64,000 bases of DNA from an uncultured Actinomycetes bacterium (GCA_963755025.1 CAVWIH010000030.1:64001-128000), one strand, 5' to 3'. Shown: positions 45,455 through 50,432, numbered from the stretch's first letter. Translations and numbers: made by a program. The notes: generated by a model not told the origin, from the letters alone.

Positions 45455-46621
45455 ATGGTCCACAGCGACACGGCTAAGGGCATCCGCATTGCGCAGTCGT
45501 GCGCGTCCGACCCGCGCGCCGCGGTCAAGGAGTTCCACGCCCAGGTCGCGCAGCCCGACATGGCGCTCGTCATCTTCTTCTGCTCCGACGAGTACGACCG
45601 CGCCATCCTCGCCCGCGAGATGAGCCGCCGCTTCGCCGGCGTGCAGGTCGTGGGCTGCACGACCGCCGGCGAGATCGGCCCCAACGGCTGCCGCGACCAC
45701 AGCATCGCCGGCGTGAGCCTCGCCGCGAGCGTCTGCACGGCCACCAGCGGCGTCGTCGAGCACCTGCAGCAGTTCGAGTTAGACGAAGGCCGCCTGGTCG
45801 CCCACGAGCTGCTCTACCGGCTCGAGGACAGCGCGCCCGGCGCCGACCGCCGCAACAGCTTCGCCTTTTTGCTCATCGACGGCCTCTCCGTGCGCGAGGA
45901 GCTCGTGGCGCACGCGCTCCAGGACGCGCTGGGCGAGATCCCGGTCGTGGGCGGCTCCGCCGGCAACGGCCTCAGCTTCGCCAACACCTACATCTACTCC
46001 GAGAAGCGCTTTTACGCCGACAGCGCCGCCCTGATCGTGGTGAGCACGCCGCTGCCGATACGCACGTTCAAGACGCAGCACTTCCTGCCCACCGACGAGC
46101 GCCTCGTGGTCACCGAGGCCGACCCCGTGCAGCGCATCGTGCGCGAGATCAACGGCCTGCCGGCCGCCGGCGAGTACGCCCGCACGCTGGGCGTGGCGGC
46201 GGGCGACCTCGGTCCGCTGCACTTCGCGTCGTCGCCGGTCGTCGTGCTGATCGACGGCGACTACTACGTGCGCTCCATCCAGAAGGTCAACCCCGACGGC
46301 AGCCTCACCTTCTTCTGCGCCATCGAGGCCGGCGTCGTGCTGCGCGTGGCCAAGGGCGTCGACCTCATCGCCAACCTGGAAGACGCGCTGGCGCAGCTGC
46401 GCGAGCAGATCGGCCCGCTGCAGCTCGTGCTCACCTGCGACTGCATATTGCGCAAGCTCGAGATCGTCGAGAGCGGCCTGACCGACCGCGTCGGCGACAT
46501 CCTGCGGGCCAACAACGCGGTCGGCTTCAACACCTACGGCGAGCAGTTCTGCGGCGTGCACGTCAACCAGACGCTGACCGGGGTCGCCCTGGGCTCCGGC
46601 GCAGCGGACCACGGTGCCTGA
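45455..46621 (+). CDS. nosP: FIST-domain heme/nitric-oxide sensor NosP
   Basis: FFCSDEYD, VGCTTAGEIGP, FAFLLIDGLSVREE, GGSAG, FKTQHF, VREINGLPAA.EY, YYVRSIQKVNPDGSLTFFCAIE.G, CDCILRKLE, GFNTYGEQF.GVHVNQT. Confidence 0.92.
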   Translation: MVHSDTAKGIRIAQSCASDPRAAVKEFHAQVAQPDMALVIFFCSDEYDRAILAREMSRRFAGVQVVGCTTAGEIGPNGCRDHSIAGVSLAASVCTATSGVVEHLQQFELDEGRLVAHELLYRLEDSAPGADRRNSFAFLLIDGLSVREELVAHALQDALGEIPVVGGSAGNGLSFANTYIYSEKRFYADSAALIVVSTPLPIRTFKTQHFLPTDERLVVTEADPVQRIVREINGLPAAGEYARTLGVAAGDLGPLHFASSPVVVLIDGDYYVRSIQKVNPDGSLTFFCAIEAGVVLRVAKGVDLIANLEDALAQLREQIGPLQLVLTCDCILRKLEIVESGLTDRVGDILRANNAVGFNTYGEQFCGVHVNQTLTGVALGSGAADHGA

Positions 46622-48204
46622 AGCGCGGCGGCCGGGCGCCGGCGACGCCGCGCGGTCCGGCGACGCCGCGCGGCCTGGCGATTGTACGGCCCGGCCGGGG
46701 AGCGCCGCGCGGCCGGGCGCCGGCGAGGTGGCCGCCCTGCAGGCGGAGATCGTGCGCCTCAACAAGGTCGTGCAGGCGCTCATGGACCGCGCCGAGGCGG
46801 CGACCAGCACGCAGGGCTCGGGCTACGGCCTGTTCCAGACCACCGTGCTGCTGCAAAAGCAGGTCCGCCTGCGCACGCAAGAGGCCGAGGCCGCCCTGCG
46901 CGACAACGAGCGGGCCTCCAGCAGCCTCGCCGGCCTCGGCCTCGAGAGACATGCACGCCCTGCGCCGTACGGCCGCCCTGCAGATCCAGCTGCTCGAGCT
47001 GCTCGTGCAGCAGAAGGACCTGGGCGAGCTGATCGACCGCGTGGCCACGCTGCTCGACATGCCGATCGTGCTCTTCGACGCCCACGGCCGCACCCTGCAC
47101 AGCTCGCGCGGCGCCGACTCGCCGGGCCTGGCGCGCCGGCTGTGGTCGGCCTACGCCGCGCGGCGCGGCCCGTCGGCCCCGCTGGGCCGGGCCGACGGCG
47201 GCGGCGGCGAGCGCCTCTACTACCACGACATCCTGGTGATGGACCGCGTCGAGCGCGTGCTGGCGGCCGTGGCCCCGGCCCGCCAGGCGCCCGAGTTCGC
47301 CGACGCCTCGCTCGCCTTTTTGCAGCAGCTCGTCACGCTCGACGTGCTGCGCCGCCGCGACGAGCTCGCCATGGACCGCCGCGAACGCCGCCACCTGCTG
47401 GGCGAGGTGCTGGCCGGCGACGGCACGCCCGACGAGCTGCGGGCGCGCCTGGCCGACCAGGGCTTCGACCACGACAGCGTCTGGCGCGTCGTGGTCGTCG
47501 AGCTGCGCGCCGCGCCGGCCCCGCCCGAGGGCGCGCCCAGCGCGCGGGCCGCCAAGCGCCTGGCCGACAGGCTGCTGCGCGCCGTCGACGACGCCCTGAG
47601 CCGGCGCCACGCGCCGTTTCTGAGCATGCCCATGGGCTCGTTCGCCGTGGTGCTCGCGACGCTGCCCGACGGCCGGCCCGAGACGGCCGCCGCGCTGCTC
47701 GCCGACCTGCGCGACGCGACCGCCAAAGCGGTCGCGCCCGAGCAGGTCGTGGTCGGCTGCTCGACGCCGCTCTCCGGCGCCGGCGGCGCGCCGCGCGGCC
47801 TGCAGCAGGCGCACGCCGCCTGCATCGCGGCGCGCCACGACCCCGCCGCCGGCGGCGTCGTGCTGTTCGACGGCTTGAGCGGTCAGTTCCGGCTGCTCGA
47901 CGGGCTCGACGAGGAGACCCTGGCCGACATCGTCGAGCGCACCTTCGCGCCGCTGCTGGGCTACGACGCCCAGCACCGCACGCGGCTCTTCGAGACCCTC
48001 GAGACGCTGTTCGAGCACCGCCTCGCCGTGCAGGAGACCGCCGACCTGCTGCACGTGCACCGCAACACGCTGCAGAAGCGCCTGGCGCACGTCGAGCAGC
48101 TCCTCGGCGTCGACCTGAGCGACCTCGACGACATCGTCGACATACGGCTCGGCCTGCACGCCGCCGAGCTGCTCGGCAAGCGCCCCTCCGCGGCCACCGA
48201 GTAG
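46614..48204 (+). CDS. PucR/CdaR-family transcriptional regulator with a NosP-partner-type N-terminal coiled coil; frameshift near 46945
   Basis: N-terminal EIVRLNKVVQALMDRAE..GYGLFQTTVLLQKQVRLRTQE; central GAF-like and CdaR GGDEF-like regions; C-terminal LFETLE..VQETADLLHVHRNTLQKRLAHVEQLLGVDL. Start overlaps the nosP stop by 8 nt. Confidence 0.85.
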
Positions 48205-48449
48205 CGGCCGCGCGCGCCGTCGCGGCAGCGACGGCGCCGACTCGCGGCCGCGACGGCGCCGCGCCTGCGACTGCGGTCGCTCGCGCGCACGGCCCGCGCC
48301 CGCGCCGCCCGCAGGTGTGCGCGCGCCCACCTCACGCCTGAGGAGTGGTCGCGCGGCGACTCGAATACGCCGTCTGTCGGCGTCATCGTTCGGTGTACCT
48401 CGCCAAGGCGACAGCTCGCCGCCGCAACCACATCTTCGAGGAGGCATCG

Positions 48450-49984
48450 ATGGGTAAGGTCTACGCACCACCCGGGACCCCGGGCAGCGTCGTCACGCTC
48501 AAAGCCCGCTACGACAACTTCATCGGCGGCAAGTGGGTGGCGCCGGTCAAGGGTCAGTACATGCCCAACCTGAGCCCGGTCACCGGCAAGCAGTTCTGCG
48601 AGGTCGCCAAGTCGACGGCCGACGACGTCGAGCTCGCCCTCGACGCCGCCCACGCCGCCAAAGACGCCTGGGGCGAGACCTCGCTGGCCGAGCGCGCCGC
48701 GGTGCTCAACGCGCATCGCCGACGCCCTCGAGGCCAACCTCGAGATGCTGGCCGTGGCCGAGACCTGGGAGAACGGCAAGCCGGTGCGCGAGACGCTCGC
48801 CGCCGACATCCCCCTGGCCATCGACCACTTCCGCTACTTCGCCGGCGCCACGCGCTCGCTCGAAGGCAGGACCGACCGAGATCGACAAGGACACGGTCGC
48901 CTACCACTTCCACGAGCCGCTCGGCGTGGTCGGCCAGATCATCCCGTTCAACTTCCCGCTGCTGATGGCCGCCTGGAAGATCGCTCCGGCCCTGGCCGCC
49001 GGCAACTGCACCGTGCTCAAGCCGGCCTCGCCCACGCCGTGGTCGATCCTCAAGCTGGCCGAGGTCATCGCCGACGTCGTGCCGGCCGGGCGTGATCAAC
49101 ATCATCACCGGCCCCGGCGGCGAGATCGGCAAGGCGCTGGCCACCAGCCCGCGCATCGCCAAGATCGGCTTCACCGGCGAGACCACGACCGGCCGGCTGA
49201 TCATGCAGTACGCCGCCCAGAACCTCATCCCGTCGACCACCGAGCTCGGCGGCAAGTCGCCCAACATCTTCTTCGCCGACGTCATGGACGAAGACGACAG
49301 CTTCCTCGACAAGGCGATCGAGGGCCTCGTGCTCTACGCCTTCAACAAGGGCGAGGTCTGCACGTGCCCGTCGCGCGCGCTCATCCAGGAGTCGATCTAC
49401 GACAAGTTCATGGCGCGCTGCCTCGAGCGCATCGGCAAGATCCGCCAGGGCAACCCGCTCGACACCGACGACCATGATCGGCCCGCAGGTCTCGACCCAG
49501 CAGATCGAGAAGATCGCCTCCTACGTCGACATCGGCCTGCAGGAAGGCGCCGAGTGCCTCATCGGCGGCCACCGCGCCGAGCAGCGCCGGCGAGTTCGCC
49601 GACGGCTACTACTTCGAGCCCACCGTGCTCAAGGGCGACAACAAGATGCGCGTCTTCCAGGAGGAGATCTTCGGTCCGGTGCTCGCCGTGACCACCTTCA
49701 AAGACGAGGCCGACGCGGTGCGCGATCGCCAACGACACCCTCTACGGCCTGGGCGCCGGCGTGTGGACGCGCAACGGCAACCGCGCCTACCGCATGGGCC
49801 GCGGCCATCAAGGCCGGCCGCGTGTGGACCAACTGCTACCACCTCTACCCCGCCGGCGCGGCCTTCGGCGGCTACAAGATCTCCGGCGTCGGGTCGCGAG
49901 AACCACCAGATGATGCTCGAGCACTACACGCAGACCAAGAACCTGCTGGTCAGCTACAGCGACCAGCCGCTCGGCTTCTTTTGA
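48450..49984 (+). CDS. aldB: Aldehyde dehydrogenase of the AldB/ExaC/AcoD type; several frameshifts
   Basis: [116 protein letters not shown]...LGFF. RBS GAGGAGG. Confidence 0.92.
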
Positions 49985-50031
49985 GAGACGCCTGCAAGGG
50001 CATCTTGGGAGTTGAAGGCTGAGAACTGACG

Positions 50032-50057
50032 GCTGCGGGCTGAGAGAAGCCCGCAGC
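50032..50057 (+). other. 10-bp stem-loop between aldB and DUF779
   Basis: GCTGCGGGCT-GAGAGA-AGCCCGCAGC, with no U-tract. Confidence 0.5.
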
Positions 50058-50085
50058 AGGCTCGCAGCACGTAAGGAGCACGGAC

Positions 50086-50432
50086 ATGAGCGAACCGGTC
50101 CCCGTTCCCGCCGTGGTGGCCACGCCCGAGGCCCTGGCCGCGGTGGCCCGCCTCGTCGCCGAACGGGGGCCGGTCATGTTCTTCCAGTCGGGAGGCTGCT
50201 GCGACGGCAGCCTCCCGATGTGCTTCGACGACGGCGAGTTCCTGATCGGCGACCACGACGTGCTGCTGGGCACGCTGGGCGGCGCCCCTTCTACATCGAC
50301 CCCCGCCAGTACGAGGTCTGGAAGCACACCCAGCTCATCCTCGACGTCGGCGAGGGCGCGCCCGAGGGCTTCTCGCTGGCCGCCGGCCCCGACACGCACT
50401 TCATCACGCGCTCGCGCATGTGCATGCCGTAG
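50086..50432 (+). CDS. DUF779-family protein; frameshift near 50285
   Basis: GPVMFFQSGGCCDGSLPMC, then FYID..QYEVWKHTQLILDV.EG...FSL....HFITRSR. The usual neighbour of AldB-type dehydrogenases. Confidence 0.88.

Follow-up and report, generated by a model that had tools for sequence, protein, structure and literature searches.

A NosP gene coupled to a PucR-type regulator with a NosP-partner module, and a putative operator at aldehyde-oxidising operons of uncultured Thermoleophilia

Introduction

Can a NosP sensor act on transcription through a partner that is itself a predicted DNA-binding protein? This question is raised by a locus in a stretch of 64,000 nucleotides (nt) from an uncultured Actinomycetes bacterium (GCA_963755025.1, CAVWIH010000030.1:64001-128000), which is called the window here and from whose first letter all positions are counted. 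The locus consists of nosP, a gene for a PucR/CdaR-type regulator and the genes for an aldehyde dehydrogenase (aldB) and a DUF779 protein. Based on the sequence alone, it was predicted earlier that a segment by which NosP docks to its partners had been joined to a transcriptional activator of aldehyde oxidation, and that one frameshift separates the two halves of the regulator (the original prediction). The window is part of a contig in a 3.37-Mb genome of 39 contigs that is 84% complete; its GC content is about 73%.

In the work consulted, NosP has been studied via kinases, phosphorelays and enzymes of cyclic di-GMP (c-di-GMP) metabolism, with a read-out several steps away from the sensor (PMC12570481, PMC8846402). 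According to the mSphere paper, about 130 N-terminal residues of the Burkholderia partner kinase NosK are unassigned (PMC12570481). In Pseudomonas, nosP and nahK (ercS'/pedS1) lie in the ped/exa cluster of alcohol and aldehyde oxidation together with exaC/pedI, and a pedS1 mutant showed altered ped promoter activity in response to alcohols (PMC12997753). A NosP output via a PucR-type regulator was considered undescribed in the original prediction; in agreement with this, we found no description of a PucR or other helix-turn-helix (HTH) partner of NosP in the literature, subscription papers and supplements being outside the scope of the search. Likewise, no literature was found on aldehyde ferredoxin oxidoreductase in Thermoleophilia, and nothing relevant among the papers listed on the combination of PucR, aldehyde dehydrogenase and DUF779.

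Results

A scan of species-representative genomes gave 28 loci that encode a protein with the N-terminal module described below. In every one of the 28, nosP is located directly upstream of the module protein. All but one are from metagenome-assembled genomes (MAGs) of Thermoleophilia or Actinomycetota; the exception is an Acidobacteriaceae MAG, in which the module heads a PAS-GGDEF protein. In the window, nosP and the regulator gene overlap by 8 nt, as had been noticed before: the TGA of nosP is at 46619-46621 and the GTG at 46614 opens the next frame, in which the peptide quoted in the original prediction is indeed found. This overlap is kept in 17 of the 21 loci that were scored by script (eight loci were unscorable), including two diguanylate-cyclase loci.

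NosP itself is encoded without any frameshift. Its Pfam domains (FIST, 2e-44, residues 38-234; FIST_C, 9e-25, residues 237-365), its length within the 370-390 amino acids (aa) or so of the family, its stand-alone architecture of FIST_N followed by FIST_C and the adjoining signalling partner with an N-terminal module are those of NosP, and it scores 450.8-451 bits on the NosP equivalog of NCBIfam (NF041558), whose cut-off is 450. Invariant His and Cys residues are present in our alignment (A5). No second NosP was found in a search of the contigs of this 84%-complete genome. Over 97% of its length, the protein (P0223) shares 65% identity with a Smithella MAG protein to which NCBI gives the name NosP, an unusually high conservation across phyla.

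The regulator gene is read in two frames in the window. The GC content at third codon positions (GC3) is at the coding level in the frame of the GTG at 46614 from about 46700 to 46925 and from there on in the frame that ends at 48204. A frameshift had been placed near 46945; the frameshift is there, but its position is about 46930-46932. At this point the window has GCCGGCCTCG, whereas the two closest relatives (G002 and G004) have GCCGCCTCG (GCC-GCCTCG), a difference of one extra G in the window, at about 46931. The junction could also be checked in public sequence: contigs of three runs (X1, X2 and X3) lack the extra base, one letter being omitted at 46930. These contigs are 98.5-99.4% identical to the window, with 17 other differing letters over 1069 nt, three over 309 nt and one over 161 nt; the public runs with such close relatives carry the labels of soil and peat metagenomes. 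Two RNA runs (X19 and X20) contained no more than 5-10% of the words.

The N-terminal piece was then compared with 41 genomes, namely that of the window and those of 40 relatives. It was matched in nine other genomes, eight of the same genus, and in all eight the reading frame of the module continues into the PucR body; in two of them (G011 and G001) the gene is broken further along. In the ninth, from a different genus, the module heads a PAS-GGDEF protein. With the intact G002 protein as query, 135 matches were obtained. Of the 120 listed, 112 have the module, with a median start near residue 11, and the eight without it are all short (303-409 aa); apart from the shortest, the homologues have about 490-550 aa. 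Their source names are only 'sugar diacid utilization regulator', 'PucR family' or 'helix-turn-helix', and the taxon named is Thermoleophilia. It had been stated that the first frame has no stop at the junction, and it is in fact open as far as 48341. Since there is no stop before this position and all relatives read module and PucR body in one frame, the N-terminal reading frame as a separate small gene was rejected, and the possibility raised earlier that it is a mere remnant was not borne out.

Frame-split genes are also present elsewhere in this genome, namely aldehyde dehydrogenase paralogues on contigs C19, C14 and C33 and an aldehyde:ferredoxin oxidoreductase (AFOR) on contig C26, and several related MAGs have like splits in AFOR. 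A crude GC3 scan of the window gave 16 frame-switch candidates with clusters at 24-27.5 kb, 41.5-42.6 kb and 46.9-51 kb. The frame-switch clusters at 24200-27500, 41500-42650 and 50550-51050 contain no stop codons. Apparently, the assembly is locally rich in one-base insertions and deletions (indels), and any frameshift in this genome therefore needs comparison with relatives. We conclude that the regulator is encoded by a single gene and that the fusion of module and PucR body is real; because relatives, homologues and near-identical contigs read through and the window has indels elsewhere, the frame break is most likely an assembly indel and the fusion intact. The leader in front of the module is rich in Ala, Arg, Pro and Gly. 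Its 81 nt are skipped by contigs of runs X1 and X4, and the distance from the nosP stop to the module motif varies from 31 to 178 nt among relatives.

In the original prediction, this N-terminal motif was taken to be typical of NosP partners. This was supported: the module aligns to positions 7-66 of the NCBIfam model of NahK/ErcS' (NF041831) with an E value of 1e-6, the homology to NahK resting on this model; in the window protein it matches no Pfam family at E<=0.01. The regulator reaches 27 bits on NF041831, the cut-off being 1500, and a Pfam scan revealed neither HisKA/DHp nor HATPase_c. Since the catalytic core is absent, the regulator is not a member of the NahK family, and the module is all they have in common. 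A profile built from ten sequences (alignment A2) and run against 1.84 billion cluster representatives matched 846 of them at E<=1e-3, of which 238 also reach E<=1e-10; the matches are almost invariably at residues ~10-75. For a survey of the domains fused to the module, Pfam was run on the 86 representatives of at least 250 aa among 150 listed, the 64 shorter ones being left out. Kinases and GGDEF/EAL proteins dominate (66 of 86): there are 36 proteins of the GGDEF type, many with PAS, GAF or EAL, and 30 histidine kinases, followed by nine PAS-only proteins, two of the PucR type, six without a family, and one each with a SpoIIE phosphatase, with ACR_tran and with FIST and module only. In four of the 86, FIST-FIST_C is fused immediately before the module. 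Thermoleophilia PAS-GGDEF(-EAL) proteins (G015, L050 and L051) carry the same module. The motif is thus real, and the module is a mark of NosP partners of any output type, PucR being a rare one. Four single-chain proteins of FIST-FIST_C, module and GGDEF or histidine kinase (P0351, P0353, P0355 and P0357) are natural NosP-partner fusions. In P0261 the module heads a SpoIIE/PP2C phosphatase domain, another rare output of a putative NosP partner.

That the gene ends in a CdaR GGDEF-like domain and a PucR HTH, as originally proposed, was confirmed for the frame from 46951 on: Pfam finds GGDEF_2 (PF17853, 2.2e-11) in the middle and HTH_30 (PF13556, 5.3e-18, over the full length of the model) at the C terminus. 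At E<=0.01 there is no match to the N-terminal sensor domains typical of the family, PucR-N (PF07905) or Diacid_rec (PF05651); the model described next has a small alpha/beta domain in their place. By its HTH and its GGDEF-like domain the regulator is a member of the PucR family with an atypical N terminus. An AlphaFold2 model of the G002 regulator has a mean pLDDT (predicted local distance difference test) of 76.6. The module is modelled as helices 16-43 and 51-77 with low pLDDT, and the residues equivalent to the leader are below 50. The module is followed by a helix of very high conservation (83-127). A small alpha/beta domain occupies residues ~131-200, and after a long helix (205-246) come the GGDEF-like domain and the HTH. 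The best Foldseek matches are PucR-family structures, 9f80 (C-terminal fragment of Rv2242, E 1.5e-10) and 3onq (BAD_0249); the regulator profile gave no match to PDB sequences at E<=0.01. When NosP was modelled in complex with residues 10-100 from the G002 regulator, the scores were 0.62, 0.65 and 0.42, compared with 0.48 for one control; they weigh neither way on binding.

Downstream of the regulator, the order of aldB (ATG at 48450) and the DUF779 gene is as originally described; that both are frame-split as well had not been mentioned. The aldB matches in tblastn run through the frames 1>2>3>1>3, and the DUF779 halves match positions 2-37 and 44-94 of DUF779. One-base differences between public contigs and the window are at 48711/48713, 48871, 49088, 49724, 49802-49804, 49890/49894 and 50284; the contigs without the aldB/DUF779 indels are only ~95% identical to the window. 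The DUF779 gene is intact in G002 and G004. Most likely, these breaks too are assembly indels and not biology. The aldB of the window is too broken to be scored as a whole, and its intact G002 orthologue was used instead; this gave 1e-157 on Pfam Aldedh and 893.6 bits on the NCBIfam model of ExaC (NF050026), just below the cut-off of 900, and from its sequence the product is best called ExaC-like.

Aldehyde oxidation is tied to the pair more firmly than could be seen from the window. Downstream DNA is available for 24 of the 25 PucR-type loci, and in all 24 the next genes oxidise aldehydes, with two unrelated enzyme systems behind one type of operator (see below). Sixteen of them have genes for a 4Fe-4S protein or ferredoxin, a tungsten AFOR and a ThiS/MoaD-like protein, in two cases with a flavin reductase added. 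Six have an aldehyde dehydrogenase, followed by DUF779 where the contig continues. The remaining two, both from one MAG, have both types of operon. In a NosP tree, from which L034 and L046 were omitted, the dehydrogenase-type loci, including the window, form one clade of seven; one more locus of the dehydrogenase type, on a contig that stops directly behind DUF779, stands beside a locus with both operons, inside the oxidoreductase-type clade. From this placement it follows that the target enzyme changed while the pair of sensor and regulator stayed. L036 and L046, on two contigs of one MAG, each contain the whole stretch of nosP, regulator, aldB, DUF779, ferredoxin and AFOR, with identical tblastn scores; this pair is either a duplicated region or redundant assembly.

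The DNA in front of aldB and of the oxidoreductase operons shares a motif, GTGYGCRCGCGACCA, a spacer of ~13-15 nt, GTGGTCRCG, CGACTCGA and CATC(G/C)T, and the spacing of the last two is fixed in both types of loci. In the window, the motif comprises two imperfect palindromes, each an inverted copy of the other (arms 48320-48330 and 48345-48355), and ends just upstream of a conserved pair of -35-like and -10-like elements (Table 1). A profile of this putative operator matches the equivalent intergenic DNA in 23 of the 24 PucR-type loci with downstream DNA, 16 of 17 outside the training set, and in none of the three cyclase-type loci; where both operons are present, the profile matches two places, one before each operon. 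In the genome of the window, nhmmer found only the site before aldB (E 1.2e-16; next match 8.7). A loose pattern gave six matches compared with four for a reversed control, and the single perfect palindrome, on C14, looks from its sequence to be inside a coding region. Neither a wider regulon nor a site for autoregulation was seen in this operator search of the 84%-complete genome. The conserved operator would be the site at which the regulator binds DNA. A GC-rich hairpin just past the regulator gene is, by its sequence, a possible terminator or RNA end.

Table 1 Features of the nosP-regulator-aldB locus, in window coordinates
Feature	Position	Strand	Description
nosP	45455-46621	+	Stand-alone FIST_N + FIST_C sensor, 388 aa, intact
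Fused regulator gene	46614-48204	+	NosP-partner module and PucR/CdaR body; GTG start; two frames owing to one extra base
Low-complexity leader	46628-46708	+	81-nt in-frame length polymorphism
NosP-partner module	46716-46925	+	Predicted two helices with loop; match to NahK/ErcS' model; conserved RLNK, LMDR, GLFQT and LQ.QVR.R
1-nt insertion (extra G)	46930-46932	+	Source of the apparent frameshift; from G002/G004 alignment, public contigs and GC3
PucR/CdaR body	46951-48204	+	Conserved helix, small alpha/beta domain, long helix, GGDEF-like domain (~47416-47820), HTH_30 (~47986-48162)
GC-rich hairpin	48214-48259	+	Just past the regulator stop; 18-nt arms, 94% complementary, 10-nt loop
Conserved putative operator	48313-48362	.	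Imperfect 20-bp palindromes, 48313-48332 and 48343-48362
Putative aldB promoter	48361-48389	+	-35-like TCGAAT (48361-48366), 17-nt spacer, -10-like CATCGT (48384-48389); by conservation only
aldB	48450-49984	+	Putative ExaC-like NAD-dependent acetaldehyde dehydrogenase; ribosome-binding site GAGGAGG (48438-48444); at least five one-base indels
DUF779 gene	50086-50432	+	Split by one indel near 50284

The locus is flanked by two genes on the minus strand. One is a divergent reading frame of 388 aa (44202-45368), and neither Pfam nor NCBIfam has a family for its G002 orthologue. Homologues of this frame precede nosP in three or more loci of the dehydrogenase type (L025, L031 and L045), and none were detected in oxidoreductase-type loci. 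A major facilitator superfamily transporter (51282-52826) lies downstream of DUF779, as it does in G002 and partly in G004. A second aldehyde dehydrogenase paralogue is encoded in two frames at 19376-20819 on the minus strand; it is 35-50% identical to the G002 enzyme.

Discussion

Taken together, we consider it probable, though well short of certain, that NosP and the PucR-type regulator with its NosP-partner module are a two-protein signalling unit of uncultured Thermoleophilia that acts at the operator of an aldehyde-oxidising operon. A PucR/CdaR-type regulator would have acquired, at its N terminus, the two-helix module of about 65 residues that is found in NosP-partnered kinases and c-di-GMP enzymes. 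The two genes would be co-transcribed and, by virtue of the 8-nt overlap of the form ATG/GTG-NNN-TGA, translationally coupled. NosP may then bind the module according to its ligand state and thereby alter the conformation or the oligomeric state of the regulator, and this would switch the action of the regulator at the double-palindrome operator upstream of the -35 element of the next operon. The position of the operator and the habits of the family suggest that this action is activation. The target would be the ExaC-like acetaldehyde dehydrogenase with DUF779 in the window and the set of ferredoxin, tungsten AFOR and MoaD-like protein in most relatives, and neither phosphotransfer nor a c-di-GMP step would be required.

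Several points weigh against this proposal. All genomes involved are MAGs, with no isolate among them. The assignment of NosP exceeds the equivalog cut-off by a margin of only about 1 bit. In one of the 24 loci (L049) the operator profile has no match. A scan of 45250-48470 for E. coli-type consensus sequences found neither a sigma-70-type promoter nor a terminator; since the GC content is 73% this is not surprising, but the promoter is therefore assigned from conservation alone. Judged from the model, the alpha/beta domain of the regulator could be the real sensor or a second one. And within 1.5 kb aldB has at least five indels, compared with none in nosP and one in the regulator gene; the contigs that lack the aldB indels are only ~95% identical, and aldB may be truly decayed in this strain.

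This last point can be extended to the whole locus: the indels would be real and the unit a cluster of pseudogenes that is decaying in this strain, with only nosP intact. The distribution of frame changes, one in the regulator gene, at least five in aldB, one in the DUF779 gene and none in nosP, fits such a decay, and the contigs without the aldB indels differ by ~5% and may be from other strains. However, the contigs that are 98.5-99.4% identical lack the extra G of the regulator gene, unrelated genes on other contigs are similarly frame-split, frame-switch candidates also cluster elsewhere in the window (24-27.5 kb and 41.5-42.6 kb), GC3 is at the coding level on both sides of every break, and AFOR is split likewise in several related MAGs. 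We regard decay as quite improbable. Hardly more likely, and still improbable, is that the module is just a generic dimerising coiled coil, that NosP acts elsewhere and that the regulator senses an effector, for example an aldehyde or an acid, via its own alpha/beta domain. PucR-family proteins usually sense metabolites directly, a separate alpha/beta domain is present, and the module is a helical hairpin of low confidence in the model. Yet the module is nearly confined to the very N terminus of proteins that adjoin NosP, in 28 of 28 loci, and directly behind FIST-FIST_C in the four single-chain representatives of the survey. It is kept across kinase, cyclase, SpoIIE and PucR outputs with NosP as the only constant companion, and the overlap of start and stop codons is likewise kept across output types.

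A different alternative leaves the two-protein unit as proposed and changes only the cue, which would not be nitric oxide (NO) or heme but alcohol/aldehyde metabolism or redox state, the link to NO in proteobacteria being secondary. In all 24 loci aldehyde oxidation is the target, via two unrelated enzyme systems, and the dehydrogenase is ExaC-like; in Pseudomonas, nosP-nahK/ercS' belongs to the exa/ped cluster, and pedS1 has an effect on promoter activity that depends on alcohol (PMC12997753); and NosP is 65% identical to the Smithella record, from another phylum. On the other hand, published assays show that NosP controls its partner kinases in dependence on NO and heme (PMC12570481, PMC8846402), and we hold a cue other than NO or heme to be unlikely, if a little less so than the two alternatives above. 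It is tempting to speculate that NosP is, at its root, a regulator of alcohol and aldehyde oxidation whose cue is tied to aldehyde or redox stress and not, or not only, to NO, because the association with ExaC-type enzymes recurs in two distant phyla, in Pseudomonas and in Thermoleophilia, and survives the swap to a tungsten AFOR; this, too, we put forward as a doubtful possibility. If it were true, the sensor, the regulator and one operator from Thermoleophilia would be a minimal in vitro system for identifying the cue of NosP.

The closest known system to the proposed unit of NosP and PucR-type regulator is NosP-NahK (PA1975-PA1976, the latter being ErcS', in P. aeruginosa; PP_2663-PedS1 in P. 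putida). As there, a stand-alone FIST/NosP sensor gene is directly upstream of a partner with a homologous N terminus, and there is a genomic tie to alcohol and aldehyde oxidation including an ExaC-type dehydrogenase. However, the partner there, a hybrid histidine kinase, passes its signal into a phosphorelay (HptB, RsmA), whereas here it lacks HisKA and HATPase_c and is a predicted DNA binder. Systems of NosP with c-di-GMP enzymes or with a kinase and a response regulator (Legionella NosP-NahK-NarR, Burkholderia NosP-NosK-NosR) share the principle that an auxiliary sensor modulates a partner without a recognised sensor domain; their outputs are c-di-GMP turnover or phosphorylation, whereas the output proposed here is the transcription of one adjacent operon. 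With the PucR/CdaR regulators (PucR/AdeR of B. subtilis, CdaR of E. coli, Rv2242 of M. tuberculosis, BAD_0249) our regulator has in common the GGDEF-like domain and the C-terminal HTH_30, the fold (9f80, 3onq) and the role of a local regulator of an adjacent catabolic operon; it differs from them in the NosP-partner module at the N terminus, in having a separate sensor protein as partner and in that no PucR-N or Diacid_rec was found. H-NOX with its kinases and cyclases is similar in that a small stand-alone gas or heme sensor controls a co-encoded effector by protein contact, but the sensor fold is unrelated, and the accessible text of the source describes no direct transcription-factor partner (PMC8846402).

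From this locus, a conserved partner module of about 65 residues can be defined that has no Pfam family in the window protein. The same sensor and docking-type module are connected here to a protein of the DNA-binding type, for which one operator can be recognised and one metabolic target. If our inference is true, ligand-dependent action of NosP could be read directly by gel shift or reporter. For the uncultured Thermoleophilia, this would give a prediction at the level of the regulon for the control of aldehyde oxidation.

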